From an uncultured Chloroflexia bacterium (GTDB lineage: Bacteria; Chloroflexota; Limnocylindria; Limnocylindrales; CSP1-4): a DNA stretch of 64,000 nt. The DNA lies in assembly GCA_963713975.1 (NCBI GenBank), contig OY970218.1, positions 2,800,189-2,864,188 on the forward strand, written 5' to 3'. A model generated the notes under the pieces. It had not been told where the DNA came from. It searched no databases and saw only the letters and a program-made list of their open reading frames with translations. Both the position numbers and the translations under genes were made by a program. Below are positions 26,161 to 58,480 of the stretch, piece by piece (within the stretch, counting starts at the first letter, position 1; every line of letters begins with the position of its first letter).

Positions 26161-26214
26161 TTCCATGCGACCCGTGACACCGGAGCTGGCACGGGCTCGT
26201 ACCAGGATCGGGTC

Positions 26215-29200: not shown

Positions 29201-29418
29201 TGACCGGGCGCATGCCGGACGCGGTCGCGCTCAACTTCCTCGAGACCGGGCTGGTTGGAACCGCTCCGGTGGATCGCAAGCGGCTCGACAAGGCGAGGGA
29301 GTCCATCCGCACCGCGGCGGCGGGTATCCGGGCCCGCGTGTTCACGCCCAAGCCCGCCCACATGGCCTGCAGCTACTGCGCGTTCCGGGAGATCTGCCCG
29401 GCTAGCGTGGTCCGCTGA
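26215..29418 (+). CDS. UvrD/PcrA-type SF1 helicase fused to C-terminal Cas4/AddB-like Fe-S PD-(D/E)XK nuclease (AdnB-like, solitary)
   Basis: Walker A GAGTGKTQV, DEFQD Walker B, motifs III-VI. C-terminal nuclease has DYK / D...D residues and a four-Cys cluster (YLTCPLKY ... CSYCAFREIC). Start is ambiguous (GTG 26215 or GTG 26335). Confidence 0.8.
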   Translation: MPASRRVPTPFPVTVHHASSEGGVRQRGGRSEPPPLVQIPVWGSADEPADDGPAAEGTDQLLDGLNPEQRRAVRHGDGPLLVVAGAGTGKTQVITRRIAWLIATRRARPSEILALTFTDQAADEMQVRVDQLVPYGYTDTAISTFHAFGDRLVREFSLELGLPTDVRVFSRPETVVFLREHLFELGLDEYRPLGDPTKFLDALATLFSRAKDEDVAPESFLAHASRLEADAAAGVAGPDADADAIAALAEEARRRTELARAYAVYQRLLAESGAIDFGDQVSLALRLLRDSPSARERIQERFRYLLVDEFQDTNRAQAELVALIAQRHRNVTVVGDDDQSIYKFRGAAISNILEFRERYRNAKVVVLRRNYRSRAPILDAAYRLVRHNDPDRLEVRAGIVKKLVAERGSGDAPAVRHEVFVSGAEEADWIAADIAARMRDGASPRDVAVLVRANAAADPVLRSLNLEGIPWRFSGTSGLYARPEIRLLLSFLRAIADPNASVDVYGLAASELYGLGGEDLTGIVNMARRRNRSVFEILEELGRQPGILRLSPETRASAARLVEDLQTHVALAHERPAGEVLYAFLRGSGWLKRLAETETVAAEGTLSNIARFFDIVRAQSSLLADDRAVFFARHLQTLIQAGDDPPTADIDPDADAVAVMTVHKAKGREFPVVYLPGLVSGRFPAIGRREPLPLPLELVNETLPEGDYQLQEERRLFYVGMTRARDELVLSHAADYGGQRARRVSPFVLEALDLPVAAGASGSGAKTTSPLERIESQQRPEASPVAPRTRDGEPLTLSFYAIDDYLTCPLKYKYAHLLRVPLAPHHSIIYGSALHAAVSEFHKRHARGIVMSEDDLVAAFLAAWRSEGFLSRDHEEARLEAGRTSLHRFREEQLAPGAVIPAYVEREFSFLLDGDRVRGRYDRVDIIPRDGDVVETTRVFDDDASADVVAPTLFSYPERVVITDYKSSDVRDPAKARQRARDSLQLSIYAMGYEAMTGRMPDAVALNFLETGLVGTAPVDRKRLDKARESIRTAAAGIRARVFTPKPAHMACSYCAFREICPASVVR

Positions 29419-29421
29419 GCC

Positions 29422-30327
29422 GTGCCGCAGCTGGGAGCTGCCGCGCGCGCAGCGCTTGACGCCGTCCTTTCGGGGGCCTCGTCAGGGGCGGTCCTCGAGG
29501 CCGACAACCTCGACGTCCTGGCAGGGATGCCGGACAGCGCCGTCGACCTCGTGTATGCAGACCCTCCCTTCGCCACGGGTGCCCGGCAGCGCCTGGTCTC
29601 GATCCGGACCGGAGTCGGCGACCGGACACGCCCGGGGTTCCGGGGTGACACGGTGGCCTGGGAAGCCGTCAGCGATCTCGCCTGGGATGACGATCTGCCG
29701 CTCGACCAGCACCTGGTCCAGCTCGCGGCTCGGGTCAGGGAGGTCCACCGCGTGCTGGCGGCGCACGGATCGTTCTACCTGCACGTGGACTGGCGGACCG
29801 CCCACCACGCACGCCTGCTCCTCGACGAGGTCTTCGGCCCTGAACGGTTCCTCAACGAGATCGTCTGGGCATATGACTACGGCGGCCGATCCCGGGACCG
29901 CTGGCCGCGCAAGCACGACACGATCCTGTGGTACGCGAAGGGCGACCGCTGGCTGTTCGACCGGGAGGCGATCGACCGTATCCCGTACCTGGCGCCGGGC
30001 CTCGTCGGGCCCGAGAAGGCGGCGCGCGGCAAGCTCCCGACGGACGTGTGGTGGATGACGATCGTGCCCCCCGCCTCCGCAGAGCGGACCGGCTACCCGA
30101 CCCAGAAGCCGGTTCGCCTGCTGGAGCGGATCGTCGCGGCCTCGAGCCGGCCGGGCGACCTGGTGCTGGATCCGTACGCCGGCTCGGGGACGACGGGCGT
30201 CGCTGCCCACCGCCTGGGGCGCCGCTGGCTGCTGGTCGATCGCAACCCGCAGGCCGTCGAGATCGCGCGGATGCGGCTGGCGAGGACCGACGCCGGGCCG
30301 GACGACGGGAAGGGGAGCGAGAAGTGA
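29422..30327 (+). CDS. Beta-class DNA N4/N6-methyltransferase (DPPF motif IV precedes FxGSGTT motif I)
   Basis: DLVYADPPFATG (motif IV) and LVLDPYAGSGTTGVAA (motif I) in beta-class order. GTG start 4 nt after the helicase-nuclease stop. Confidence 0.8.
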   Translation: MPQLGAAARAALDAVLSGASSGAVLEADNLDVLAGMPDSAVDLVYADPPFATGARQRLVSIRTGVGDRTRPGFRGDTVAWEAVSDLAWDDDLPLDQHLVQLAARVREVHRVLAAHGSFYLHVDWRTAHHARLLLDEVFGPERFLNEIVWAYDYGGRSRDRWPRKHDTILWYAKGDRWLFDREAIDRIPYLAPGLVGPEKAARGKLPTDVWWMTIVPPASAERTGYPTQKPVRLLERIVAASSRPGDLVLDPYAGSGTTGVAAHRLGRRWLLVDRNPQAVEIARMRLARTDAGPDDGKGSEK

Positions 30328-33949: not shown

Positions 33950-34734
33950 GCGGCGCCGGCGAGACGGTCTCGGCGGCACTTGCCCGCCTCTACGACCTGG
34001 ACCTGTCCGAGGACCCGGGGGACCTGGACCTCCTCCTGGCGCTGGCCGCCCGGTCCGGCGGGCCGGTGCTGGAGCTGGCCGTGGGGTCCGGTCGGCTGGC
34101 GGTGCCACTGGCGGCGGCCGGCCACGAGGTCACCGGCGTGGACCTGGACCAGTCGATGCTGGCCAGGGCCGCCGGGCGGGCCGATGCCGCCGGGCCCGAA
34201 GTCGCACGACGGCTGCGGCTGGTCCACGGCGACGCGCGCACCATCCGCCTGAACGACGCGGGTGCGTACGGGCTCGCCTGCATCCCGCTCAACTCGATCT
34301 TCCTGATGGGGACCCGCGCGGACCAGGCCGCGGCCGTGGCCACCCTGGCGGCGCACCTCGCGCCCGGCGGCATCGCGCTCGTCGATGCCTGGCTGCCCGA
34401 CGCGGAGGACCTGGCCCGGTACGACGGCCGCCTGGTGCTGGAGTGGGTGCGCGGTGACCCGGACAGCGGCAGGACGGTGACCAAGTCCTGCAGCGCGCTG
34501 TACGACGCGACGACCGCGTCGGTCGCTCTCACGACGCTGTTCGAGGAAGGCGACCCCGGCCAGCCACCGGTCCGGTGGGTGCGGGTGGACCGCCTCCGGC
34601 TCGTGGGCCCGGACGAGCTCGCGGCCTTCGCCGAGGCGGCCGGCCTGTCGGTCGAGACCCTGGCGGGCGACTACGAGCTGGGTGGCCTGGAGGCCGGTGC
34701 GGACCGGGTCGTGATGGTCGCGCGAAAGGCCTGA
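33946..34734 (+). CDS. Class I SAM-dependent methyltransferase
   Basis: Motif I VLELAVGSGRLAVPLA and post-I acidic residue. Overlaps the agmatinase stop. Confidence 0.65.
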   Translation: MSGAGETVSAALARLYDLDLSEDPGDLDLLLALAARSGGPVLELAVGSGRLAVPLAAAGHEVTGVDLDQSMLARAAGRADAAGPEVARRLRLVHGDARTIRLNDAGAYGLACIPLNSIFLMGTRADQAAAVATLAAHLAPGGIALVDAWLPDAEDLARYDGRLVLEWVRGDPDSGRTVTKSCSALYDATTASVALTTLFEEGDPGQPPVRWVRVDRLRLVGPDELAAFAEAAGLSVETLAGDYELGGLEAGADRVVMVARKA

Positions 34735-34826
34735 CCCCGGGACCCGCCAGGACCCCCTCGTCTGCGCGGCATTGGGACCATCGGCACGTGGGTTCACCGG
34801 GGGTGCTGCGTGGTAGAGTCGGCCCG

Positions 34827-35963
34827 ATGGCTGACCAGATCCGCCTCCTCGTCGTCGAGGACGTCCCCCAGGTTGCCCAGTACATCCGCGGGCTGCTCAA
34901 CTCGCAGTCCACGATCAAGCTGCTGGACGTCGTCAGCGACGGCAACCAGGTGCTGGGCCTGATTTCGGAGCTGCGGCCCGACGTCGTGCTCGTGGACGCG
35001 CTCCTCCAGGGCCGCGTGAAGGGCATGTCCGTCGTGGACAAGATCCACCAGTCCGGCCAGCCCGTCCCCGTGATCGTGCTCACCGTTCCCCAGAAGCCCA
35101 TCGTTGCTGACCCCGCGAGCGGCGTGCACGGCGTGCTGGCAATGCCGTTCACGGGCTATGAGCTGGTCACGCGCCTCCAGCAGGTCAACCAGGCGTCACA
35201 GGCGACGGAGGGCGGTCACCTGGCGCGGATGATCACGATCTTCGCCCCCAAGGGCGGGGTGGGCAAGACGACCCTGGCCTTCAACCTCGCCGTCGCCATC
35301 GGCCAGGCGGGCGCGCGGACGGTGCTCATCGACGGCAGCCTGCAGTTCGGCGACATGCGGGCCCTGCTCAAGGTGCCGCTCGAGGCCCCCTCGCTGCTGG
35401 ACCTGCCCACGGACCGCATCGCGGAGTCGGATCTCGCCGATGTCCTGTGGCGGGACCCGTCCGGGATCGACATCCTGCTGGCACCGCCGCGGGTCGAGAT
35501 GGCCGAGATGGTCACCGTCCGGGACGTCGAGAAGACCCTGTCCCTGCTGCGTCGCGTCTACGAGGTCGTCATCGTCGACACGCCGGCGGTGGTCAGTGAC
35601 ACCAACCTCGCGTTCCTCGACGCCTCGGACACGATCCTCGAGATCGTCACCTACGACTCCACGGCCATCCACAGCACGATGGTGATGGCCGACGCGTTCC
35701 GCATGATCGGCTACGCCCCGACCAAGGTCCACTACCTGGTCAACCGCGCGGACTCCACCGGAGGGCTGGACCCCGAGGTCCTGTCCCGCGCCCTCGGGCG
35801 TGTCCCGGAGCACCGGGTGAGCTCCGGCGGCGCCCTGGTGGTCCGGGCCAACAACGAGGGCATCCCGTTCGTGCTGGCGGACCCCAGCGCGGAGATCAGC
35901 CAGGACATCGTCCGGACGGCAGCGGAGCTCGTGCGCCGGCCCGCCCCGGTGGCGGCGCGGTAG
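34827..35963 (+). CDS. Response-regulator receiver domain fused to ParA/MinD-type P-loop ATPase (CpaE/TadZ-like architecture), orphan
   Basis: N-terminal REC fold (IRLLVVEDV...VVLVDALL). C-terminal deviant Walker A (ITIFAPKGGVGKTTLAFNLA) and MinD/ParA motifs. Confidence 0.65.
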   Translation: MADQIRLLVVEDVPQVAQYIRGLLNSQSTIKLLDVVSDGNQVLGLISELRPDVVLVDALLQGRVKGMSVVDKIHQSGQPVPVIVLTVPQKPIVADPASGVHGVLAMPFTGYELVTRLQQVNQASQATEGGHLARMITIFAPKGGVGKTTLAFNLAVAIGQAGARTVLIDGSLQFGDMRALLKVPLEAPSLLDLPTDRIAESDLADVLWRDPSGIDILLAPPRVEMAEMVTVRDVEKTLSLLRRVYEVVIVDTPAVVSDTNLAFLDASDTILEIVTYDSTAIHSTMVMADAFRMIGYAPTKVHYLVNRADSTGGLDPEVLSRALGRVPEHRVSSGGALVVRANNEGIPFVLADPSAEISQDIVRTAAELVRRPAPVAAR

Positions 35964-41785: not shown

Positions 41786-43267
41786 TCAGGTGCCCGCGGG
41801 TGCCTCGCTGCGGCGGATCCGTGCCGCGAGCCTCGCGCCACGGCGCTGTAGATCGGCCTCCAGGCGTGGATGCGCCCGGCCGGCGAGACGCAGGCGCTCG
41901 AGCAGGCGCCAGGCCGTGCGGGTCGCTGCGAGGGCGCCACCTGGGTCGTGCAGGCGGTGCTCGCGCAGCTTCGCGACCTCGATCCAGGCGATGGCCCCGA
42001 GCCCGCCGCCACCGGCCGCCGCGGTCTGCCAGGCCTCGGCGGCCTCCGCCCATCGCCCGAGGCGCTTGAGCGTGCGAGCCCGTTCTGCCGCGAGCCGCTC
42101 GTCCGTCCAGCGGTCCGACGCGGTGTCCCATGCGGCCGTGGAGGGCGAGGGCCCCATCGAGCCGCCGCGTCCACCGGCGAGCTCGCCCCGCCACCCGGAG
42201 CGTGGTGCAACACCACCGAAGTGCGGCTGGACACGCGGCGACCACCAGGCGTTCCGTTCCTCGTGGGCGGCATCGCGAGCAACCGACGGGCGCACCGGCG
42301 AGCGCCCGAAGGGGTCCCGGATGGGTGGGGTCGAGGCAAGCGCGTCGTCCAGGCACTCGAGCGCCTCGTCGTGCCGCCGCTCCCGGGCATAGGCGCGGGC
42401 CAGGCCCGCCAGGTCACCCCGGGGCGCCTCGTGGCGCGTGGTCCGGTCCGTGTACCTGTGCTCGATGTGCCCCAGCAGGAGCCCCAGCGACCGGACGTCC
42501 TTCTCGTTGTGGATGACGACGCCCGCGAGGGGCTCGATGGGCCCGCCGCGGAGTACGTCCAGGTAGAGGGACGGGATCTCCCAGCCCTCGACGTCACCCA
42601 CGCGTGACACGCCGAGAAGGTCCTCCTCGACGGTCCGCAGGCGGGCGTTCTCCATGCGGTGCCTGAAGACGCGGCGCACGAACGGCAGCAGGTCCAGGTG
42701 GCCGGCGTGAGCGGGCGCGGGCCGGCCGGCGAGGCGGTAGCGGGCCTCGATCAGGGGCCAGTCGAACCCACGCCCGTTGTAGGTGACCAGCCATGTGTCC
42801 GGCGTCACCCAGCGGGCGATCTCCGCGAGCATGGCCGGCTCGTCCGCATGATCCGGGAGGAGGAGCTGGGTCTGGAGGAACGAGGATCCCTCCCAGCGGC
42901 CCATGCCGACCAGGAAGGCGAGGGTGCCGGCAGCCGTGGCGAGCCCCGTGGTCTCGGTGTCCAGGCAGACGAGGGGAGCGTCGGCGGGCGGGTGGCCGGG
43001 CAGGAGGGCAAGACGCACGCGGTCGACCGGGATGTCCACGGGTGGCACGACCCGCCGGACGAGCAGCGAGCCATCATCCACGGTGACATCGGCCCCGAGG
43101 GCCGCCGCCAGTCGCGCCGCGAGCGCCGGGCTGCGGCGCCCGGCGAACGGGGCCCGCGCCGGCTCCTGGTCCGGCCCCACCGGCGCCCCGCCGGCCCGCC
43201 CGAGCGTCGCACGCAGGTTCGCGAGCCGCCGCTCGCGCGTGACCGGCCCGACGGCCTCGACGGTCAT
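41786..43267 (-). CDS. MrfB/YprB-like DEDD 3'-5' exonuclease with C-terminal TPR-like region
   Basis: RNase-H-like exonuclease motifs (LVCLDTETTGL; YNGRGFDWP). Start overlaps the upstream helicase stop. C-terminal helical repeats. Confidence 0.6.
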   Translation of the reverse strand: MTVEAVGPVTRERRLANLRATLGRAGGAPVGPDQEPARAPFAGRRSPALAARLAAALGADVTVDDGSLLVRRVVPPVDIPVDRVRLALLPGHPPADAPLVCLDTETTGLATAAGTLAFLVGMGRWEGSSFLQTQLLLPDHADEPAMLAEIARWVTPDTWLVTYNGRGFDWPLIEARYRLAGRPAPAHAGHLDLLPFVRRVFRHRMENARLRTVEEDLLGVSRVGDVEGWEIPSLYLDVLRGGPIEPLAGVVIHNEKDVRSLGLLLGHIEHRYTDRTTRHEAPRGDLAGLARAYARERRHDEALECLDDALASTPPIRDPFGRSPVRPSVARDAAHEERNAWWSPRVQPHFGGVAPRSGWRGELAGGRGGSMGPSPSTAAWDTASDRWTDERLAAERARTLKRLGRWAEAAEAWQTAAAGGGGLGAIAWIEVAKLREHRLHDPGGALAATRTAWRLLERLRLAGRAHPRLEADLQRRGARLAARIRRSEAPAGT

Positions 43268-45636
43268 GCGACCGCCTCCCGCCGCACCAGCCCGGCACCC
43301 AGCGCGGCGAGGAGGCGGAGCGCGAGCGCCTTACCGTCCACCTCCGGCTCCAGGCGCGGTCCGGTGCAGGCCGGGCAGCCGGCCTCGCAGGGACAGGCGG
43401 CGATCAGGTCCACGGCCCCTGCCACCAGCTCGTCGTGCCGGTCGAACAACCGCTCGGACAGGCCCACGCCGCCCGGCATCGCCTCGTACAGGTAGATCGT
43501 GGGTGCCTCGTGGTGCGGGGACCGGACCTGGGCGACGAGGCCCAGGTCCCGGGGATCCACCATCAGCAGGACCGCGGCCACGGCCTGGATGGCCCGCCCG
43601 GCCCCGATCAGCGCCACGTCCAGCTCGTCCCGCCTCCAGCCGGCGGCGGCCGCGTCCGCCGTGAGCCAGTAGGCCGTGGTCTGCAGCTCGATCTCCGGCA
43701 GGTCGATGGGACCCCAGCCCACGTTCTCGTCCGTGACGAACTTGAGCTTCTTGTAGAGGGTCACGAGACTCGCGACCATGACCTCGCCGTGGACGCGCGT
43801 GCCGCCGGTTGCGGGGGCCGTCGCGAACACGTCGAGCGGCTTGAGGGTCACGGCGCGGTTGGCGTAGGTGTAGTGGTCCGCGTCGATCCGGTGGACATAG
43901 GCCTTGCGCTCGCCCCATTCGAGGCGGTCCACGTGGAACTGCGCCGACTCGTGCATGTAGATCGCGTGCTGGTGGACGAGGACCTGGGCGGAGAAGAGAT
44001 CCACCTCGCCGAGCACCCTGGGGCGGTCCGGCGTCGTGTCGATGATCACGACGTTCTCGGGGGCGGCGGAGCGCAGCGAGATCTCCGAGGCGGGGAAGTT
44101 CTCCGAGCTCCAGTACCAGCGTCCATCGTCGGCCTGCCGCACGTGGCCGCCTTCACCCAGGAAGGCGAGCAGGTCGTCCGCCGGTCCCGGCCCGAACCAC
44201 TCCCCGGGCTCGAACGGCAGCTCGAACGTTGCCGCGCGGATGTGGGCGAGCAGGACGTGGAGGTTGTCGGGGTCCAGCCGGGCTTCCTCGGGTCGCCCGC
44301 CGAGGACGAACTCCGGGTGATGGATGACGTATTGGTCCACGGGGGCCGGCGACGCGACCAGCACGGCGACGCTGACGTCGCCCCTGCGGCCGGCCCTGCC
44401 CATCTGCTGCCAAGTGGCGGCGATGGATCCCGGGTAGCCGGCAAGGACCGCCACGTCCAGCCGACCGATGTCCACGCCGAGCTCCAGTGCGTTCGTGCTG
44501 ACAACGCCCAGGACCTCGCCGTCCCGTAGCCCGCGCTCGATCGATCGTCGTTCCGTGGGCAGGTAGCCGCCCCGGTAGCCCCGGATCCGACTCCGGGGGC
44601 CAAGGTCCTGACGCAGCGTCTCGCGCAGGTTCGAGAGCATGATCTCGACCGCCACGCGGCTCTTCCCGAAGACCACGGTCTGGCGCCCGGCGCGGAGGAA
44701 CGGGATCGCCCACCGCTGGGCCAGCGTCAGGGCGGACCCGCGCGCCCCGGTGGCGCCGTCGATGATCGGGGGGTCCACCAGCAGCAGGTGCTTCTCGCCC
44801 GCCGGGGCCCCGTTGCGGTCGATGAGGCGGGCGGGCCGCCCGGTCAGCGTCTCGGCCAGCTCCGCCGGGTTCCCGATGGTGGCCGAGCAGCACACGATGA
44901 CGGGGTGCGAGCCGTAGTGCGCGCACAGCCGCAGCAGGCGCCGCAGCACGTTGGCGACGTGCGAGCCGAACACCCCGCGGTAGGTGTGGAGCTCGTCGAT
45001 GACGATCACGCGAACTTGCTCGAACAGTTGGAACCACTTGGTGTGGTGGGGGAGGATTGCCGAATGGAGCATGTCGGGGTTCGTGACGACGACCTGCCCG
45101 GCCTTGCGGATCGCCGAGCGGATGGGTGCCGGCGTGTCCCCGTCGTAGCAGGCCGAGGAGACCTGCAGCCCGGCATCCCGGACGAGTTCCCCGAACTCGG
45201 CGACCTGGTCCTGGCCCAGGGCCTTGGTGGGGAACAGGAACAGCGCTCGTGCCGAGGGGTCCTCCGCGAGCGCCTGGAGCACCGGCACGGTGTAGCAGAG
45301 CGACTTGCCGGATGCGGTCGGGGTGACCACGACGACGTCCTGCCCGTCGTGCACCGCCTCGATCGCGTCTGCCTGGTGGGTGTAAGGGCGCTCGATGCCG
45401 CGTCGTGCGAGGCCACCCCTGATTCTCGGGTCCAGCCACGCGGGCCACTCCCCATGCTCCGCGGCACGAGCCGCGCGCACCTCGTGATGGACGACGCCAC
45501 GGGCGAGTGACGGCTCCGAGAGCAGGTGCTCCAGCACGTCCCGGGTGCTGGCTGGGGCGTAGGTGCGCATCTGCCGTCTCCGGTCTGATATCGAACGGAT
45601 GATCGAATTGAACGCGAGTCTACGACAGGCTGGCAA
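43264..45636 (-). CDS. MrfA/YprA-like DExH-box helicase with C-terminal DUF1998 four-Cys domain
   Basis: Motif I TPTASGKSL, DEAH-like DELH, helicase C motifs, and the C-terminal ACPCEAGCPAC metal-binding cluster characteristic of DUF1998. Confidence 0.75.
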   Translation of the reverse strand: MPACRRLAFNSIIRSISDRRRQMRTYAPASTRDVLEHLLSEPSLARGVVHHEVRAARAAEHGEWPAWLDPRIRGGLARRGIERPYTHQADAIEAVHDGQDVVVVTPTASGKSLCYTVPVLQALAEDPSARALFLFPTKALGQDQVAEFGELVRDAGLQVSSACYDGDTPAPIRSAIRKAGQVVVTNPDMLHSAILPHHTKWFQLFEQVRVIVIDELHTYRGVFGSHVANVLRRLLRLCAHYGSHPVIVCCSATIGNPAELAETLTGRPARLIDRNGAPAGEKHLLLVDPPIIDGATGARGSALTLAQRWAIPFLRAGRQTVVFGKSRVAVEIMLSNLRETLRQDLGPRSRIRGYRGGYLPTERRSIERGLRDGEVLGVVSTNALELGVDIGRLDVAVLAGYPGSIAATWQQMGRAGRRGDVSVAVLVASPAPVDQYVIHHPEFVLGGRPEEARLDPDNLHVLLAHIRAATFELPFEPGEWFGPGPADDLLAFLGEGGHVRQADDGRWYWSSENFPASEISLRSAAPENVVIIDTTPDRPRVLGEVDLFSAQVLVHQHAIYMHESAQFHVDRLEWGERKAYVHRIDADHYTYANRAVTLKPLDVFATAPATGGTRVHGEVMVASLVTLYKKLKFVTDENVGWGPIDLPEIELQTTAYWLTADAAAAGWRRDELDVALIGAGRAIQAVAAVLLMVDPRDLGLVAQVRSPHHEAPTIYLYEAMPGGVGLSERLFDRHDELVAGAVDLIAACPCEAGCPACTGPRLEPEVDGKALALRLLAALGAGLVRREAVA

Positions 45637-45833
45637 CCGCGCGTGCCACCTTGGCTGTCACGGCCCACGCGGCGGTCCGCGTTGCGGCTCGCGAATCGCC
45701 GGACGGCGATCGAGTTGACAGCCGAATCGGGCGCAGCTACCCTCGGGTCATGGTTCGCTCCGCTCGACGCACCGGCACCGCACGCGTCGCGTCCGATGCC
45801 GCCGGTGCGCCGGCACTCGGACCCCAGGAAGCG

Positions 45834-46504: not shown

Positions 46505-47089
46505 GTGCCAGGGGAGGATGGTCGGCGCCGGATGATCGAGATCCCCGTAGAGGACTACGTCTTCGCGTTCGCCGCCCTCGTGGGTGGCGTGCTGCTCCTG
46601 TTGACCGTCGTCTTCGATGACATTTTGGGTGGGATCCTGGATTCGTTCGGGCTCGAGTTCGGCGGCACGTCGGTCACGCCGCTGCTGCTCGGGTTCATCG
46701 CCATGTTCGGAGCGGGCGGACTGGTTGCGACGCAGGTCTTCGACGTCCATGGCGGCCAGGCCGCGCTCGTCGCGGCCATCTCCGGGGTCGCGGGAGCGGC
46801 CCTGGCCGGCGGGCTGTTCGCCTGGTTGCGGCGATCCGAGAGCGAGGAGCCTTTCTCGCTGGCGGATCTCGTCGGCGACAGCGGCTACGTGAGCGTCGGC
46901 ATCCCGGCCGGGCGCTACGGCAGCGTGCTCGTCCACGCCGAGGGCCAGGCCCACGAGTTTGCAGCAACCTCGGGCGCCGAGATCGCGGCGGGGACCACCG
47001 TCCGGATCACGGGTATCGCCGGGACGGGGTTGCTGGTCGAGCCGGCAGGGCAGACCGTGCCCGCCGCGCCTGCCGATCCCGCGCAGTAG
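46505..47089 (+). CDS. NfeD-family membrane protein, short form (TM bundle + C-terminal OB-fold)
   Basis: Hydrophobic N-terminal half. C-terminal OB-like domain (GYVSVGIPAGRYGSVLVHAEGQAHEFAA). Directly upstream of the flotillin gene. Start uncertain (46505 or 46532). Confidence 0.55.
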   Translation: MPGEDGRRRMIEIPVEDYVFAFAALVGGVLLLLTVVFDDILGGILDSFGLEFGGTSVTPLLLGFIAMFGAGGLVATQVFDVHGGQAALVAAISGVAGAALAGGLFAWLRRSESEEPFSLADLVGDSGYVSVGIPAGRYGSVLVHAEGQAHEFAATSGAEIAAGTTVRITGIAGTGLLVEPAGQTVPAAPADPAQ

Positions 47090-47116
47090 CGCCCGGAACC
47101 AGGAGGGGTTGAGATC

Positions 47117-49240
47117 GTGGATGCACTGTTCGACATCGTAGGGAGCGGGACGCTCGCGCTCCTGTTCGTCATCGTCGTCATCGTCCTGCTGGTGGCCTAC
47201 ATCACGGGCCGGTTCAAGGTCGCGGGCGCGAACGAGGCCCTCGTGCGCACCGGAGGGCTGGTGAGGGCCCCGGCCCAGCTCAAGGTGGTTCGCGCGGGTC
47301 GCGTCGTCGTGCTCCCGCTCGTCCACAAGCTGGGCAAGCTGCACCTGTCGGCCAGGCTGATCGAAGTGTCCCTGTCGGACGCGGTCACCCAGCAGGGCAT
47401 CAAGGTGGCCGTCCAGGGCGTCGCGACGGTCAAGATCGGCGGCGACGACGAGTCGATCCGCAACGCCGCAGAGCGGTTCGTGGATCGCGAGGACCAGATC
47501 GAATCGATCGTCAAGAACGTGCTCGAGGGGTCGCTGCGCTCGATCGTGGGCACGCTGACCGTCGAAGAGCTCAACTACGACCGCCAGAAGTTCCAGCAGG
47601 AGGTCCAGAGCGCGGCCAAGGGCGACCTCGCCACGTCGGGCCTGACGATCGACAACTTCACGATCCAGGCCATCCGCGACGAGGTTGGCTACATGGACCT
47701 CATCGGCCAGCAGGAGACGGCCCGTCGCGAACGGGACGCGCGGATGGCCAAGGCCACGGCCGATCAGGAGGCAGCGGTCCGGGAGGCGGAGGCCCAGCAG
47801 ATCAAGCTCAACGCCCAGCGCGACGTCTCCCTCCGCCAGGCGGAGGTCATCGCGCTCACCGCCGCCGCCGAGGCGAAGGCCGCACAGGCCGGTCCGCTGG
47901 CGGATGCCGAGGCCCAGCAGGAGGTCACCCGGCGCCAGACCGAGCTCGCCCAGCTCCAGGCGGACCGCACCCAGAAGGAGCTGATCGCCAGCACCATCCG
48001 GCCGGCGGAGGCCGAGGCGGAGGCACAGATCCGGCGCGCCGAGGGCGACAAGGGCGCCCGGATCGCGCAGGCCCAGGCGGAGGCCGAGCGCGTCAAGCTC
48101 GCCGGCCAGGCCGAGGCGTCCGTGAACGTCACCATGGGCGAGGCACAGGCCCGGGTGACCATGGTCAACGCGGAGGCGATCGCCAAGCAGACGACGCTCG
48201 AGGGCAACGCCGAGGCCGGCATCACCTTCACCAAGGGCGAGGCCGAGGCCAAGGCGCTGGCCCTCCGAGCCGATGCCTACCGGCAGTTCAACGAGGCGGC
48301 CATCATCTCGACGGTCCTCTCGATGCTGCCCGAGATCGTGCGCGCTGCCGCCGAGCCGCTCTCGCACATCGACAGCCTGACCGTCCTTTCCTCCGAGGGC
48401 GCCTCCGACGTCGTCAAGACGACGACCCGGACGCTGGCGGAGGCATCCGCGTCCGTGAAGGGCCTCACGGGCATCGACATCCCGGAGCTGCTGAACAGCG
48501 CCCTGGGCAGCAACGCACCCGCCAAGGGCCCGGTCGTCGTCAAGGCGAAGCGCCAGTCCAACGAGGACGAGGGGTCCGGCGGCGGCGGTACCTCCGGCAC
48601 CGGCGGCACCCCGCCCCCATCGGGCTCCGGTCCGGCACCGGCAGCTCCCGAAGGCGGTGAGTCCGCGAGCGCCAGTCCGCCCGTTGGCGTCGAGCCCCCC
48701 GCGAGCGTCGAGCCACCCAATTCGCCTGCGGGCCAGACCCCGTCCGTCGTCAAGCCGACGCCGGCCGTCAAGCCGACGCCGGCCGTCAAGCCGACGCCGG
48801 CCGTCAAGCCGACGCCGGCCGAGCGCTTCGAAGCGGCGTCCAGGGCGATGGAGGCATCGCTGTCGCGGGCCACGGCTCCGCCCGCGTCGGCCCTCGGCGG
48901 GCTCACGTCGCCCATGCCCCCCCTGCCTCCGGTGAGCGACATGAGACCGGGCGACAAGCGGAAGGCCGCGATGGCCGCGGCCGGGGCGATCGGGATCAGC
49001 GAGTCGACCACGCTCAGCGAGTCCGCCCAGCGGCTGGCCGAGGAGCTGATCCGGGTCCCCGGGATCGAACGGTTCGGCAGCACGCGGCTGCGTGACCTGG
49101 ATCGCGGTGGGCCGAGGTCGCTGCGGAACCTGTGGGGCGCTACCCGCGACGAGCTCTCGACCCGCTATGGGGACGTCACGATCGGGATGCTGCTCGACGC
49201 CTACGGTCGGGAGCACGGCCAGGGCGGACCGCCCCAGTAG
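47117..49240 (+). CDS. Flotillin-family SPFH/band-7 protein with long Ala/Glu coiled coil and Pro-rich repeat tail
   Basis: N-terminal TM, SPFH domain, extended AEAEAQ... coiled coil. AGGAGG RBS before the GTG start. Confidence 0.8.
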   Translation: MDALFDIVGSGTLALLFVIVVIVLLVAYITGRFKVAGANEALVRTGGLVRAPAQLKVVRAGRVVVLPLVHKLGKLHLSARLIEVSLSDAVTQQGIKVAVQGVATVKIGGDDESIRNAAERFVDREDQIESIVKNVLEGSLRSIVGTLTVEELNYDRQKFQQEVQSAAKGDLATSGLTIDNFTIQAIRDEVGYMDLIGQQETARRERDARMAKATADQEAAVREAEAQQIKLNAQRDVSLRQAEVIALTAAAEAKAAQAGPLADAEAQQEVTRRQTELAQLQADRTQKELIASTIRPAEAEAEAQIRRAEGDKGARIAQAQAEAERVKLAGQAEASVNVTMGEAQARVTMVNAEAIAKQTTLEGNAEAGITFTKGEAEAKALALRADAYRQFNEAAIISTVLSMLPEIVRAAAEPLSHIDSLTVLSSEGASDVVKTTTRTLAEASASVKGLTGIDIPELLNSALGSNAPAKGPVVVKAKRQSNEDEGSGGGGTSGTGGTPPPSGSGPAPAAPEGGESASASPPVGVEPPASVEPPNSPAGQTPSVVKPTPAVKPTPAVKPTPAVKPTPAERFEAASRAMEASLSRATAPPASALGGLTSPMPPLPPVSDMRPGDKRKAAMAAAGAIGISESTTLSESAQRLAEELIRVPGIERFGSTRLRDLDRGGPRSLRNLWGATRDELSTRYGDVTIGMLLDAYGREHGQGGPPQ
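48749..48820. repeat. 4 x 18-bp tandem repeat (gtcaagccgacgccggcc, encodes VKPTPA) inside the flotillin tail
   Basis: Perfect head-to-tail copies. Confidence 0.8.
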
Positions 49241-54117: not shown

Positions 54118-54195
54118 TCCCGGGGGGTAGCGGCGCGCTGCAAACCCGGTGCTAGGATGCACCCACGGCTATCGATCGCGGGAGGACCGGCGCAC

Positions 54196-55272
54196 GTGAC
54201 AACCGAGACGGGGGCGGGGGCGACACAGCAGGCGTCCTGGCGTTTTGAAGGACCGAACGGGAGCATGGCGCCCCGATCGGCCATCGAGGTGCTGGTCGAT
54301 CTCAACGAGAAGGTTGCGGGCGGCAAGGTGGGGGAGTACCAGCCGGTGCCGCTGGGCTTCACGCCGCTCGACAAGACCATCGGGACCGGCCTCCGCGCGG
54401 GCGAGCTCCTGCTCATCGGCGGGGCGCAGGGAACCGGCAAGACGACGATGGCGCTGCAGATGGCGCGCAACGTCGCGTCCGGCGGCCAGGCGAACGTGCT
54501 GTACATCTGCTTCGAGCACGACGAGCTGTACCTGTTGAACCGGCTGATTGCCGCCGAGTCCGCGCTCGCCCACCTGCCCCACAAGACCGGTGCGATCAAG
54601 ATCCAGGACGTCCGCAAAGAGATCCTGGGCACCTGGATGGCCGAGGGCGGCGGTGTCGCCCAGCTGGCCGCCAACCCGCGCCTGCGGCCGTCGCTGGACC
54701 GGATCGCCCGCTACGGCCAGAACCTGTTCCTGCTCCGCGGCTCACAGACCGCGAGCACGATCGACGGGATGCGCCAGCTCATCCGGCAGCATCGCGAACT
54801 GTCCGGAGACCGTCGCCTGGTCGTGGTCGTGGACTATCTCCAGAAGGTGCCGGTCATCCCCGAGCCCGTGAGCGAGTCGGAGAAGGTGACCTTCGTCGTC
54901 AACGGCCTCAAGGACATCGCCCTGTCCGAGGACGTGCCGATGATCGCGATCGTCGCGGCGGACAAGGAGGGCCTCAAGGCCTCGCGCCTCCGCAACTACC
55001 ACCTGCGCGGGTCGTCGGCGATCAACTACGAGGCCGACATCATCCTGATCCTGAACGAGAAGTACCAGATCGTTGCCAAGGTCAACATCGAGTTCAACCC
55101 GTACCAGGCGCAGCGCTTCCGGGACTGGGTGATCGTCTCGGTGGAGAAGAACCGCGGCGGCCAGGACGCGGTGGACCTGGAGTTCGAGAAGCACTTCGAG
55201 TTCTCCTGCTTTGACCCCAACGGGCGGACGGTGCAGGAGAAGCTGATCGAGGAGCGCCTCTACAACGACTGA
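54196..55272 (+). CDS. Stand-alone DnaB-C-terminal-like RecA-fold ATPase (no DnaB N-terminal domain)
   Basis: GFTPLDKTIGTGLRAGELLLIGGAQGTGKTT Walker A, VVVVDYLQ Walker B. DnaB H4-like LKDIALSEDVPMIAIVAA...NYHLRGSSAINYEADIILIL. GTG 54196 with a GGAGGA RBS; alternatives 54157 or 54265. Confidence 0.55.
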   Translation: MTTETGAGATQQASWRFEGPNGSMAPRSAIEVLVDLNEKVAGGKVGEYQPVPLGFTPLDKTIGTGLRAGELLLIGGAQGTGKTTMALQMARNVASGGQANVLYICFEHDELYLLNRLIAAESALAHLPHKTGAIKIQDVRKEILGTWMAEGGGVAQLAANPRLRPSLDRIARYGQNLFLLRGSQTASTIDGMRQLIRQHRELSGDRRLVVVVDYLQKVPVIPEPVSESEKVTFVVNGLKDIALSEDVPMIAIVAADKEGLKASRLRNYHLRGSSAINYEADIILILNEKYQIVAKVNIEFNPYQAQRFRDWVIVSVEKNRGGQDAVDLEFEKHFEFSCFDPNGRTVQEKLIEERLYND

Positions 55273-55591
55273 GGTTCCGAATTCGAGCCGCGGGGGGTCT
55301 CGCTACCTCGTGCGCCGGACGTACGGCTTCCGGCGCTGGGCGGCGACCTGATGCGCAGGACGCACGGCTGAGGCTGCCGCCGGACGCCAGGCAGTGCCTG
55401 GATGCCTGCCACGCACATGCGACGCACGTCGGCGACGATGGGCCGCGGAACAATGTGCGCGTGACGCACGGGCCGGTCGGAATCGGCATGGCCCACGTGC
55501 CAGGGCCGGGGCGGATCGTGATCTGGACCGGCTCGCTCCCGTGACGACGCCGGCCTCGTTCGGGCTGTACCGGGCACGGTAGAGTTCGCGC

Positions 55592-56110
55592 ATGACCAAC
55601 CCCAATGCCGACCGCTTCCCGGGCGTCGTCGAGATCGTCGTTGAGATCCCGCGGGGAAGCCGCAACAAGTACGAGTTCGACGAGGTAGCCGGTGTCTACC
55701 GACTGGACCGGGTCCTGTCGTCGGCCGTGTTCTACAACTTCGACTACGGCTTCATCGAGGGGACGCGGGCCGATGACGGCGATCACACGGACGCCCTCCT
55801 GATCATCGACGAGCCGACCTTCACGGGCTGCCACGTCTGGGCGCGTCCGATCGGCGGGCTGGAGATGCGCGACGAGAAGGGCTTCGACTTCAAGACGCTG
55901 TGCGTCGCCGTGCACGACCCTCACCAGCAGCACATCGAGCGCCTCGAGCAGATGCGCCCGCACCGGCTCGTCGAGATCGAGCACTTCTTCAACACCTACA
56001 AGCTGCTCGAGGAGAAGGACGTCGATGTGGTGGGCTGGCGGGATCGGGATCGCGCGCTCGAGGTGCTGACGGCGGATCGCGTGCGCTACCGGCGCGAAGT
56101 TGGTGGCTGA
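55592..56110 (+). CDS. ppa: Inorganic pyrophosphatase (family I)
   Basis: VVEIPRGSRNKYE and DGDHTDAL motifs. Confidence 0.9.
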   Translation: MTNPNADRFPGVVEIVVEIPRGSRNKYEFDEVAGVYRLDRVLSSAVFYNFDYGFIEGTRADDGDHTDALLIIDEPTFTGCHVWARPIGGLEMRDEKGFDFKTLCVAVHDPHQQHIERLEQMRPHRLVEIEHFFNTYKLLEEKDVDVVGWRDRDRALEVLTADRVRYRREVGG

Positions 56111-56690
56111 GCGCCCGGACCGACTGTTCGTCGCGGTGCCGCTGCCACCGGCGCCGCTGGCGGCCTGCAAGGCGCTGATCGAGGGCGTTCGCGCCGGACC
56201 GCTCGGTGACGTGCCCCGTTGGGTCCACGTCGACAACCTCCACCTGACGGTGCGCTTCCTGGGCGAGACACCGCCCGAGCTCACTCCGGATGCCGCGCTG
56301 GCCGTCCAGGACGCGATCACGGGTGCGCGGGCGTTCGAGGTCGTCCTCGCCGGGGCCGGCGCTTTTCCGGAGGCGCGCAAGCCGCGCGCGCTGTGGCTGG
56401 GCATTGAACGAGGCGCCGGGGAGCTGGGCGCACTCATGGATGCGCTGGACCCCGCGCTGGAGCCCCTCGGCTGGCCGCGCGATGACCGCCCGTACCGCCC
56501 GCACCTGACGGTCGCGCGCCTGGATCGCTCGTCCATCGCCTCGTCCGGCGCAGTCGCCGACGAACTGCGGACGGCCGCCGCCGACTGGAGGACGTCCTTC
56601 CGGGCGGACCGTGTGGTCCTCTACCGCAGCCACCTCGGGGGCGGACCGCCCCGCTACGAGCCGCTGGTCGAGGTGGCGCTGGAGCCCTGA
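56100..56690 (+). CDS. thpR: RNA 2',3'-cyclic phosphodiesterase (2H phosphoesterase, ThpR/LigT)
   Basis: Two H-x-T-x motifs (HLTVRFLG, HLTVARL). Confidence 0.75.
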   Translation: MVAERPDRLFVAVPLPPAPLAACKALIEGVRAGPLGDVPRWVHVDNLHLTVRFLGETPPELTPDAALAVQDAITGARAFEVVLAGAGAFPEARKPRALWLGIERGAGELGALMDALDPALEPLGWPRDDRPYRPHLTVARLDRSSIASSGAVADELRTAAADWRTSFRADRVVLYRSHLGGGPPRYEPLVEVALEP

Positions 56691-56776
56691 GCTTCGCCCG
56701 CGTGTTGCCCCTGTGCGGCAGGACGCGCTAGGCTCCGGGGGCTCTCCCCGTCCACCCACCCGGAGGTCGCCACCTG

Positions 56777-58150
56777 ATGGCCAGTGTCAATTCCCGCCGG
56801 ACCAAGTTCGTGCTCGACGAGGACCGGATCCCGCGGGCCTGGTACAACATCGCGGCCGACCTGCCCGTGGTGCCTCCGCCGCCCCTCCATCCGGGCACCG
56901 GCCAGCCGATCGGCCCTGCCGACCTCGCGCCCCTGTTCCCAATGGCGCTGATCCTCCAGGAGGTCAGCTCGGATCGCGAGATCGAGATCCCGGACCCGGT
57001 CCGCGACGCCTACCGGCTCTACCGCCCGTCGCCGCTGCATCGCGCCCACCGCCTCGAGGCTGCGCTCGATACGCCGGCCCACATCTACTACAAGTACGAG
57101 GGCGTGAGCCCGGCCGGCAGCCACAAGCCGAACACGGCCCTGCCGCAGGCGTTCTTCAACAAGGAGGAGGGCGTCAAGCGGCTCGCGACGGAGACCGGGG
57201 CTGGGCAGTGGGGGAGTGCGCTCGCGTTCGCGGGTTCCGTCTTCGGTCTCGAGGTCAAGGTCTACATGGTCAGGGCGAGCTACGACCAGAAGCCGTACCG
57301 CCGGATCCTGATGGAGACCTACGGAGCGTCGGTCGTGGCCAGCCCCAGCCCCACCACGAACTATGGCCGGCGGGTGCTGGCGGAGACGCCCGACTCGAAC
57401 GGCTCGCTCGGGATCGCGATCAGCGAGGCGGTCGAGGACGCGGCGACCCGCGACGACACGAAGTACTCGCTGGGTTCCGTCCTCAACCACGTGATGCTCC
57501 ACCAGACGGTGATCGGGCTCGAGGCCCAGGAGCAGATGGCGATGGCCGGCGAGGAGCCGGACGTGATCGTGGCCTGCGCCGGGGGAGGGTCCAACTTCGC
57601 CGGGCTGACTTTCCCGTTCGTCGGTCGGAACCTGCGGGGCGAGGCGACCTACCGGGTCATCGCCGCGGAGCCCGAGGCCGCACCGTCGCTCACCCGCGGC
57701 ATCTACGCCTACGACTACGGGGACACGGGCAAGATGGCCCCGATCGTCAAGATGCACACGCTCGGGTCCGAGTTCATGCCGGAGCCGATCCACGCGGGCG
57801 GCCTGCGCTACCACGGCATGTCGCCGCTCGTCTCCCTGCTCAAGGAGCATGGCCTGATCGAGGCACGCAGCGTGCACCAGCGGGCCTGCTTCGAGGTCGG
57901 GGTCCAGTTCGCGCGCGCCGAGGGGATCCTGCCGGCGCCGGAGAGCACGCACGCGATCAAGGTTGTCGTGGACGAGGCGATGGAGGCCAAGGAGGCCGGC
58001 GAGCCGAGGGTGATCCTGTTCAACCTGTCCGGGCACGGCCACTTCGACCTGGCGAGCTACGAGCGGTACCTGCAGGGCTCCCTGGAGGACTACGAGTACC
58101 CCGCCGACAAGGTCGCCCAGGCGCTGTCCGCCCTGCCCCGGGTCGGCTGA
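56777..58150 (+). CDS. TrpB2-type tryptophan synthase beta-like PLP enzyme
   Basis: PLP lysine in PAGSHKPNTA, N-terminal extension and the EPEAAPSLTRG insertion typical of TrpB2. Confidence 0.8.
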   Translation: MASVNSRRTKFVLDEDRIPRAWYNIAADLPVVPPPPLHPGTGQPIGPADLAPLFPMALILQEVSSDREIEIPDPVRDAYRLYRPSPLHRAHRLEAALDTPAHIYYKYEGVSPAGSHKPNTALPQAFFNKEEGVKRLATETGAGQWGSALAFAGSVFGLEVKVYMVRASYDQKPYRRILMETYGASVVASPSPTTNYGRRVLAETPDSNGSLGIAISEAVEDAATRDDTKYSLGSVLNHVMLHQTVIGLEAQEQMAMAGEEPDVIVACAGGGSNFAGLTFPFVGRNLRGEATYRVIAAEPEAAPSLTRGIYAYDYGDTGKMAPIVKMHTLGSEFMPEPIHAGGLRYHGMSPLVSLLKEHGLIEARSVHQRACFEVGVQFARAEGILPAPESTHAIKVVVDEAMEAKEAGEPRVILFNLSGHGHFDLASYERYLQGSLEDYEYPADKVAQALSALPRVG

Positions 58151-58172
58151 CCGGGCGCGGGGACATCTACCG

Positions 58173-58439
58173 GTGCCCAAGCTCGCGTGTCGCGCATGCG
58201 GCCGGGAGGTCTACACGGCGGCGTCGCTGGATTCGCTGTTCGCCGAGGAGCGTCGGTGCCCACGTTGTGGCGCGCTCCTGGACCCGGAACGTCGACTCAC
58301 GGACCGCCGCCAGCACGTGCGACGAGTCAACCCGCCGGACGCGCCGGGCCCGCCCGATGAGACCGGTGAACGCCGCATTGGCGAGCGGCGCCGGGGCCGA
58401 CGACGATCCGGTGAGACGGGTACGTGGCCGGGCCGCTGA
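58173..58439 (+). CDS. Small Arg-rich zinc-ribbon protein
   Basis: CRACG...CPRCG. 88 aa. Speculative coding call. Confidence 0.3.
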   Translation: MPKLACRACGREVYTAASLDSLFAEERRCPRCGALLDPERRLTDRRQHVRRVNPPDAPGPPDETGERRIGERRRGRRRSGETGTWPGR

Positions 58440-58480
58440 GCAGAACGCACAGGCGCGGCAGCGTCCCCGATAATCGGGGC

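Follow-up and report, generated by a model that had tools for sequence, protein, structure and literature searches.

A probable MrfAB-type helicase-exonuclease operon, with conserved candidate promoter elements, in a genome of the order Limnocylindrales (Chloroflexota)

The genome of an uncultured bacterium of the Limnocylindrales, an order of the Chloroflexota, contains two adjacent genes that encode a DExH helicase and a DEDDh exonuclease. They were analysed within a stretch of 64,000 nucleotides (nt) from contig OY970218.1 (GenBank assembly GCA_963713975.1, positions 2,800,189 to 2,864,188), which is called the window here and supplies the coordinates given below. Both open reading frames (ORFs) are on the minus strand, at 43264..45636 (790 residues from a TTG start) and 41786..43267 (493 residues), exactly where the original prediction had placed a pair like MrfA and MrfB, the mitomycin C repair factors of Bacillus subtilis. 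Their domains and signature residues bear that prediction out, and the two genes are very probably a translationally coupled operon, mrfA-mrfB, that is the Limnocylindrales ortholog of the MrfAB excision-repair module of B. subtilis. The host had been taken for a high-GC Gram-positive bacterium. The GC content is indeed high, and flat across the region at approximately 0.70–0.74, but the host itself was mistaken. The nearest relatives of both proteins are annotated as Candidatus Limnocylindrales or Chloroflexota, and nearly all of the genome loci closest in synteny come from Chloroflexota/Limnocylindrales metagenome-assembled genomes (MAGs), the only form in which the organism is known.

The start of mrfA is almost certainly the ATG at 45570, which gives a gene at 43264..45570 and a protein of 768 residues. 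It is placed there because GGAG is present at 45578..45581, 7 nt upstream of this ATG, because the deposited gene call for the helicase is the 768-residue form and because the alignment to MrfA begins downstream of the same ATG. The 790-residue ORF first described does exist, but its 22-residue, TTG-initiated N-terminal extension is almost certainly spurious. At its other end mrfA overlaps mrfB, as had been noted, by the 4 nt of an ATGA (43264..43267), the junction reading ...GCA TGA / ATG ACC.... A GGGAGG Shine-Dalgarno sequence is found at 43275..43280, 7 nt upstream of the mrfB ATG. The overlap of stop and start codons implies translational coupling of mrfA and mrfB. All features of the two genes and of their promoter region that are described below are on the minus strand.

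The helicase belongs to superfamily 2 (SF2) and to the YprA/MrfA family. It aligns with B. subtilis MrfA (YprA; PDB 6znp) at E = 7e-249, with residues 37–776 matched to 10–747 in an alignment that is colinear from end to end, and the identity is 50.4% over 736 columns, only 6 of which are gap columns. The Pfam domains follow the same order. These are DEAD (PF00270, 6e-34; RecA1 domain, 44866..45381), Helicase_C (PF00271, 1.3e-12; RecA2 domain, 44380..44694), the winged helix of the Hrq1/MrfA type (PF22982 WHD_HRQ1, 3.3e-07, 31.7 bits against a cutoff of 27; 44065..44277) and the Zn-binding MZB domain, or DUF1998 (PF09369, 3.8e-19; 43363..43596), which is fused to the helicase and is matched over profile positions 3–80 of 80. 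In the numbering of the 790-residue ORF, the Walker A motif TPTASGKS has its lysine at K111, motif II is DELH (214–217), motif III is SAT (251–253) and motif VI, in the RecA2 domain, is QQMGRAGR (410–417). Motifs I, II, III and VI are all intact, and in the 768-residue numbering they appear to correspond, at a constant offset of +7, to MrfA residues K82, D185/E186 and S222, which are needed in vivo (10.1101/426304).

The ACPCEAGCPAC cluster that had been read as typical of DUF1998 is likewise present within the MZB domain (CPCEAGCPAC, 43366..43395). It aligns with DUF1998 over the full profile, and its cysteines (C748, C750, C754 and C757 in the 790-residue numbering) align one-to-one with four cysteines of the 6znp chain, which are Zn ligands in MrfA (PMC7797055). 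The region that comprises the winged helix (WH), OB and CON domains is colinear with that of MrfA. The BrxA-like or Zn-binding modules inserted in YprA helicases of the defence branch (10.1101/2025.09.15.676423) are absent from it. The NCBIfam model TIGR03817, for the actinobacterial DECH helicase, also matches over nearly the full length with 644.3 bits, and since its curated cutoff is 874.1 the helicase is not a TIGR03817 equivalog.

The product of mrfB matches the core of B. subtilis MrfB (PDB 8un9) with E = 3e-28 and 40% identity in the core, and the Pfam family RNase_H_2 (PF13482) with 9.8e-30. Both motifs by which an RNase H-fold exonuclease had been proposed are present, as LDTETTGL at residues 102–109 and TYNGRGFDWP at residues 162–171. 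In MrfB the catalytic residues D107, E109, D172, H258 and D262 and the wedge residue L113 have been defined experimentally (PMC11194089). The alignment puts D103, E105, D169, H253 and D257 of the Limnocylindrales nuclease at the catalytic positions and L109 at the wedge. These five DEDDh residues and the wedge leucine are invariant in an alignment of 50 diverse representatives, which are 28–68% identical to the query. The family is a large one, with 4659 representative clusters at E <= 1e-10.

An AlphaFold2 model of the 493-residue nuclease (predicted local distance difference test [pLDDT] 84.4; predicted template modelling score [pTM] 0.81) consists, in order, of an N-terminal extension, the exonuclease core, three helix hairpins and a capping helix. 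Residues 1–98 precede the first catalytic strand and include modelled strands at 60–78. The core, as mapped by residue to MrfB, comprises residues 99–269 (42461..42973) and is followed by a TPR-like tail (residues 283–488, 41804..42421), in which the model has TPR-like hairpins at 283–311, 389–417 and 421–461 and the cap at 467–488. One TPR match is found at threshold (TPR_2, residues 287–314, 28.0 bits against a cutoff of 27). The helical repeats of the original prediction are consistent with this match and with the three modelled hairpins. In the 50-relative alignment the conserved C-terminal residues are A432, E436, R476 and R479. The best PDB match of the model in a Foldseek search is 8un9, followed by exonuclease domains of B-family polymerases, TREX/ExoI and TPR proteins. 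The B-family polymerase exonuclease domains are structural neighbours of MrfB in published work as well (PMC11194089).

The extra length of the nuclease is explained by a single insert of approximately 70 residues between TPR1 and TPR2 (residues 317–386, 42110..42319) that is rich in Gly, Pro, Ser and Arg. It is missing in more than 80% of the distant relatives of approximately 410 residues, and is found in only some of the relatives with 43–68% identity (mean occupancy 0.37). Within it, pLDDT is below 50 at residues 327–332 and 335–374. The insert is therefore predicted from alignment occupancy and the model to be disordered and lineage-specific. It marks a site at which the TPR scaffold of MrfB tolerates change, which bears on what the TPR domain does. 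Another relative, the 686-residue protein P0110, contains both MZB (PF09369) and RNase_H_2 (PF13482), and is either a natural fusion of a helicase C-terminus to MrfB or a gene call merged across an ATGA-type overlap.

Is the pairing of the two genes retained in other genomes? Eighty genome loci that encode MrfB relatives, obtained in a scan with a 14-sequence alignment, were searched with the helicase, and 77 of them had usable upstream DNA and were testable. The helicase gene is directly upstream of mrfB and on the same strand in 63 of these 77. All 47 testable loci among L001–L048, which are from Chloroflexota (46) and one Dormiibacterota MAG, have the pair. Paired loci are also present in Paenibacillus, Clostridia, Symbiobacterium, Vicinamibacteria and other Acidobacteriota, Myxococcota and Atribacterota. 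Within the Limnocylindrales the conservation extends beyond the pair, the order nfeD, DivIC-like gene, mrfA, mrfB and pfkB being kept.

The promoters were compared over the 160 nt upstream of mrfA in 43 orthologous Limnocylindrales loci. A palindrome, CGAAC-N4-GTTCG, is located 26–55 nt upstream of the start codon in the orthologous promoters. Its GAAC-N4-GTTC box is found with at most one core mismatch in 39 of the 43, 19 of which are perfect, whereas shuffled or random 70-mers contain such boxes at 1.9–2.6% with at most one mismatch and at 0.07–0.26% without any. The arms carry 1–2.5 bits and the flanks 0.1–0.3 bits. There are some 30 perfect sites in 1.03 Mb, and roughly two-thirds of these are at mrfA promoters. 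GAAC-N4-GTTC is the LexA box of the Firmicutes and Actinobacteria (PMC4951493). It is also the sequence bound by LexA of Dehalococcoides, in the Chloroflexi, according to the 2002 study of Fernandez de Henestrosa as cited in that article, where this is the sole Chloroflexi LexA given as tested experimentally. Perfect or one-mismatch boxes also occur upstream of mrfA in the loci of Symbiobacterium, Paenibacillus and Clostridia, and the box is absent upstream of mrfA in those of Myxococcota, Acidobacteriota and Atribacterota; this distribution matches the clades whose LexA uses GAAC-N4-GTTC.

In the window the candidate LexA (Cheo)-type box, CGATCATCCGTTCG, is at 45592..45605, 21 nt upstream of the mrfA ATG, and has one mismatch to CGAAC-N4-GTTCG. 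A -10-like hexamer, TAGACT (45617..45622), is found 11 nt upstream of the box. A consensus scan found no canonical -35 and no σ70 promoter upstream of mrfA. The mrfAB operon thus appears, from its promoter sequences, to be damage-regulated in this clade, with a candidate LexA-type operator downstream of the TAGACT -10 element. The presence of the box in 39 of 43 promoters is evidence for a response of the pair to DNA damage that does not depend on protein homology. No paper in the searchable literature was found to describe LexA control of yprA/mrfA.

A second palindrome, GTGMCA-N7-TGKCAC, is present in 33 of the 43 mrfA promoters. Its centre is 52–54 bp from that of the LexA box in 26 promoters (range 46–77), and in the orthologs TAGACT or TACACT is conserved 20–22 nt after the palindrome. 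Another hexamer, nAnnnT, follows the palindrome at exactly 10 nt in 29/29 mrfA promoters and in 6/6 promoters of a gene for a UvrD helicase with a PD-(D/E)XK nuclease; it is not found at neighbouring offsets. Upstream of mrfA in the window, the palindrome is GTGACAGCCAAGGTGGCAC (45643..45661) and the hexamer is CAGCCT (45627..45632), 10 nt after it, and together they make up a promoter module at 45627..45661. The window contains exactly two perfect matches to the palindrome, where 0.02 would be expected. The second, at 26174..26192, is upstream of the UvrD-nuclease gene (26215..29418), and its module extends to 26208. The palindrome is kept in 5/5 close metagenome orthologs of that gene for which there was upstream DNA, and in none of its distant metagenome orthologs.

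In 1.55 Mb there are 39 copies of the full module, all 39 in the sense orientation, and for 38 copies the gene downstream is mrfA, mrfB or the UvrD-nuclease gene. The UvrD-nuclease loci that have it are L081, L082, L084, L086 and L128, and in two genomes it is directly upstream of mrfB (L044, from approximately 1989, and L048, from approximately 6806). In L022 and L034 the module is 24 nt further from the unit formed by TAGACT and the LexA box, which suggests that there are two separable promoters. The start codons of the UvrD-nuclease genes are approximately 6 nt after the nAnnnT hexamer; therefore their transcripts look leaderless.

Several other identities for the palindrome were considered and rejected. 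It is not a DriD-type site, the published DriD site, ATACGTCCGTTTCTGGCGCA, being unrelated. A σ54 reading of TGGCAC...TTGC misses the required spacing by one, and the orthologs lack TTGC. Nor is the palindrome an ordinary -35, its left arm being 23 nt and its right arm 10 nt from the hexamer, with no σ70 promoter identified by the consensus scan. It is also unlikely to be an element of the divergent DivIC-like gene, which has its own candidate TTGACA-17-TACCCT promoter approximately 95 nt away; synteny alone cannot separate mrfA from the DivIC-like gene, and it is to the mrfA hexamer that the palindrome keeps a fixed distance.

Homologs of MrfA have been recognised by a DExH domain, a C-terminal domain and four cysteines, and those of MrfB by their catalytic residues (10.1101/426304). 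Each of these features is present in the Limnocylindrales pair, and within the YprA family the helicase belongs to the repair branch. In B. subtilis MrfA and MrfB are epistatic and interact, and their action on mitomycin C mono-adducts or intrastrand crosslinks does not depend on UvrABC (10.1101/426304). The MZB domain of MrfA, a 3'-5' DNA helicase, drives the OB-CON canopy over the loading strand (PMC7797055), and MrfB is a Mg2+-dependent DEDDh 3'-5' exonuclease (PMC11194089). By homology, the Limnocylindrales MrfA would be a monomeric 3'-to-5' SF2 DNA helicase whose OB-CON-MZB canopy closes over the loading strand, its four-Cys Zn-binding MZB domain presumably being needed for activity, and it would unwind, or translocate past, a bulky lesion. 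MrfB would then degrade the displaced damaged strand as a Mg2+-dependent DEDDh 3'-5' exonuclease with a leucine wedge, and its TPR tail may act as a protein or DNA scaffold. The pathway would run independently of UvrABC. The activities of the two proteins, their physical interaction and, above all, the lesion on which they act are predicted here from their homologs.

Some observations weigh against this interpretation. The function of MrfAB in this clade is deduced from homology to characterised proteins, and cross-complementation in B. subtilis worked for close relatives only and failed with the Pseudomonas aeruginosa homologs (10.1101/426304). The failure of distant homologs leaves a mitomycin-specific role in a distant phylum unproven and makes its inference a weak one. 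The disordered insert of approximately 70 residues in the TPR tail is absent from the characterised MrfB proteins. In 14 of the 77 testable MrfB-like loci no helicase is present within 7 kb, as judged from the approximately 2.6–7 kb of upstream DNA fetched, and so pairing with the helicase is not obligatory across the family. These solo homologs belong to Clostridia, Acidobacteriota, Zixibacteria, Sumerlaeia and others (L049, L051, L052, L058, L059, L061, L062, L064, L066, L067, L069, L072, L074 and L079). In the LexA box of the window the left arm is degenerate and reads GATC instead of GAAC, and in the nearest relatives this arm is GATC or GCTC; SOS repression may be weak or lost in this genome. 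In addition, lexA and recA were looked for in the window and the fetched loci as a means of cross-validating the box, and neither was found.

Might the two proteins have a different role? They could be a genuine MrfA/MrfB pair that serves a broader or different form of genome maintenance than excision of mitomycin-type adducts, such as the handling of stalled forks, of gaps, of bulky or oxidative lesions of other kinds or, as with Hrq1/RecQ4, of recombination intermediates. MrfA has no intrinsic specificity for mitomycin-damaged DNA (PMC7797055), the promoter module is common to mrfA and a UvrD-PD-(D/E)XK enzyme of the end-processing type, and the lineage-specific insert in the TPR scaffold could alter the partners of MrfB. 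We nevertheless consider such a role quite improbable, because identities of 50% and 40% to the B. subtilis proteins are accompanied by the retention of every residue functionally tested there; in addition, Limnocylindrales are often found in metagenomes from soil, an environment in which mitomycin-type natural products could be present. It is far less probable still that the helicase forms the core, and the exonuclease the effector, of a YprA-family anti-phage system (DISARM, Dpd, Druantia, ARMADA or similar). Several defence systems do centre on DUF1998/YprA helicases (10.1101/2025.09.15.676423), and PADLOC models for BrxH, SngC, DruE, DpdF and DrmA match the helicase, but these matches are confined to the generic RecA core, the DrmA match being weak and partial (6.7e-16, residues 210–438). 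Pfam scans of the neighbours identified no DrmB, PLD nuclease or DNA methylase within approximately 10 kb of mrfAB, and BrxHII and PglX were likewise not found in that range. The sole methyltransferase there is a 262-residue class-I enzyme of the small-molecule type, approximately 7 kb away. The colinearity of the helicase with MrfA, with 6 gap columns in 736 and none of the domains inserted in the defence branch, also argues against a defence role, as does the placement of MrfB-associated helicases in the repair branch of a published phylogeny (10.1101/2025.09.15.676423). Synteny of the locus and its housekeeping neighbours extends throughout the order, which sets it apart from a mobile defence island, and the GC content does not change across the region. 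Conservation of the outer neighbours across the order indicates a core chromosomal locus. On these grounds, and with DUF1998 fused to the helicase, the original preference for an MrfAB-type repair role over DISARM stands. An operon that is fixed across an order among housekeeping neighbours also supports the view, already published, that YprA helicases linked to MrfB are a housekeeping branch for repair, apart from the defence branch.

The promoter elements can be weighed in the same way. It is unlikely that the motifs are not operators at all and have been retained by common descent, or that the palindrome is the remnant of an RNA hairpin or terminator. All of the promoters compared are orthologous, so that conservation could be partly inherited, and when the window is taken alone the LexA-box matches are not significant (7 found against 3.3 expected). 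The palindrome also comes right after a stop codon in three places, at 26174 in the window (a DUF4446 gene) and after mrfA in L041 and L044. Yet the flanks of the motifs have diverged to approximately 0.1–0.3 bits while the arms still carry 1–2.5 bits, and the arms are kept where the spacers vary. The palindrome has one-sided A/C variants in which base pairing is lost, and this makes an RNA hairpin unlikely. Moreover, the module is orientation-specific (39/39) and recurs upstream of a non-homologous gene family, in 6/6 close orthologs there. If the motifs are operators, then mrfAB of the Limnocylindrales might be driven by two separable damage-related promoters, one repressed by LexA and the other a -35-less promoter of the form palindrome-N10-nAnnnT, the latter being the operator of a hitherto undescribed, LexA-independent regulator with a small repair regulon. 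We put this forward tentatively, as a possibility that we hold to be somewhat short of an even chance. Such a regulon would resemble those of PafBC in mycobacteria or DriD in Caulobacter in its logic, not in sequence. The RecA-NDp motif of PafBC, which is non-palindromic, offers a loose analogy only. A module common to mrfA and the UvrD-nuclease gene provides a handle for finding the regulator and its regulon in a lineage that has not yet been cultured.

The neighbours of mrfAB within approximately 10 kb encode a zincin peptidase, a 2-hydroxyacid dehydrogenase, YchF, a small acidic ORF, a PfkB kinase, a divergent 216-residue DivIC-like protein, NfeD, flotillin, FtsH, M20 peptidases, an arginase-family enzyme, the small-molecule methyltransferase, a CpaE-like ATPase and a racemase. 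Of the two flanking genes named in the original prediction, the PfkB kinase is supported (3.7e-13) and is convergent with mrfB, its stop codon being 9 nt away. The gene on the other side, described as FtsB-like, has only a sub-threshold match to DivIC (E = 0.0019, 18.4 bits against a cutoff of 28.9). Its candidate promoter, TTGACA-17 nt-TACCCT, is on the plus strand at 45715..45752, and the -35 corresponds to a conserved TGTCAAC block of the orthologous loci. An in-frame ATG at 45750 is 6 nt after the -10, which suggests a leaderless mRNA and a product of 183 residues rather than the 216-residue ORF. On the far side of mrfAB from the kinase, the NfeD-flotillin pair occupies 46505..49240, and the 707-residue flotillin has a Pro/Ala/Ser-rich C-terminal region with (KPTPAV)x4 as a tandem repeat.

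Some more distant genes were also examined. The UvrD helicase-PD-(D/E)XK nuclease gene (1067 residues) is followed after 3 nt by a gene for a 301-residue type II N6/N4 DNA methylase, the two spanning 26215..30327, approximately 11.5 kb from mrfAB. The methylase matches the PADLOC model MTase_II (1.5e-106), and no restriction enzyme is evident adjoining it; it could be either an orphan or one component of a system. This pair was rejected as a defence system tied to mrfAB: the GajB matches reflect a generic UvrD helicase, no GajA is found beside the pair, and the distance to mrfAB is the 11.5 kb given above. At 34575..35963, approximately 6 kb past the 3' end of mrfB, is a gene for a response-regulator receiver domain joined to a ParA/AAA_31 domain (CpaE/TadZ-like). 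The name of TIGR03817 refers to a neighbourhood of helicase and secretion genes in the Actinobacteria; apart from the CpaE/TadZ-like gene, no pilus or secretion genes were found among the ORFs scanned. The region 54157..58473 encodes a 371-residue DnaB_C/KaiC-like P-loop protein with a weak match to the PADLOC model mad8 (1.5e-07), and two large adjoining ORFs of 480 and 620 residues have no Pfam or PADLOC match.

Among known systems, yeast Hrq1 and its RecQ4-like relatives are one point of comparison. The winged helix of the Limnocylindrales helicase matches the Pfam model for the HRQ1 WHD, and Hrq1, a homolog of MrfA, also reduces sensitivity to mitomycin C (PMC7797055). It is, however, eukaryotic and much more distant, and has no operon partner of the MrfB type. 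DrmA and DrmB of DISARM have in common with the helicase described here an SF2 core and the DUF1998 fold, which reflects remote shared ancestry in the YprA family. DISARM encodes its OB-CON-DUF1998 module as a separate protein, DrmB, alongside a PLD nuclease and a methylase (10.1101/2025.09.15.676423), whereas here DUF1998 is fused to the helicase. SftH of Mycobacterium smegmatis (TIGR03817) belongs to the same YprA/DUF1998 helicase family and is a monomeric 3'-5' helicase (PMC7797055). It is only 33% identical to B. subtilis MrfA (PMC7797055), while the Limnocylindrales protein is 50% identical to it. The earlier remark that MrfAB is little studied outside the Firmicutes is fair for the pair, but SftH, an apparently solo homolog, has been characterised (PMC7797055).

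The closest known counterparts are MrfA and MrfB of B. subtilis. MrfA (YprA; PDB 6ZNP/6ZNQ/6ZNS) has the same domain order, NTR-RecA1-RecA2-WH-OB/CON-MZB, over its full, colinear length, together with the same helicase motifs, the four Zn-cysteines and mrfB next in the operon. The copy described here differs in its host, which is from the Chloroflexota and not the Bacillota, in the 4-nt overlap with mrfB, and in the LexA-type box and the additional palindrome. MrfB (YprB; PDB 8UN9) has the same DEDDh residues, leucine wedge and long N-terminal extension before β1, and the modelled C-terminal tail would have the same three TPR hairpins and capping helix. The Limnocylindrales nuclease is 493 residues in length against 413 in B. 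subtilis MrfB (construct 33–413, PMC11194089), and the extra length is the insert between TPR1 and TPR2. The pair adds a well-supported point to the phyletic record, an MrfAB ortholog from the Chloroflexota in which every residue functionally tested in B. subtilis is kept. What is new relative to the known MrfAB is confined to the promoter architecture and the TPR insert.

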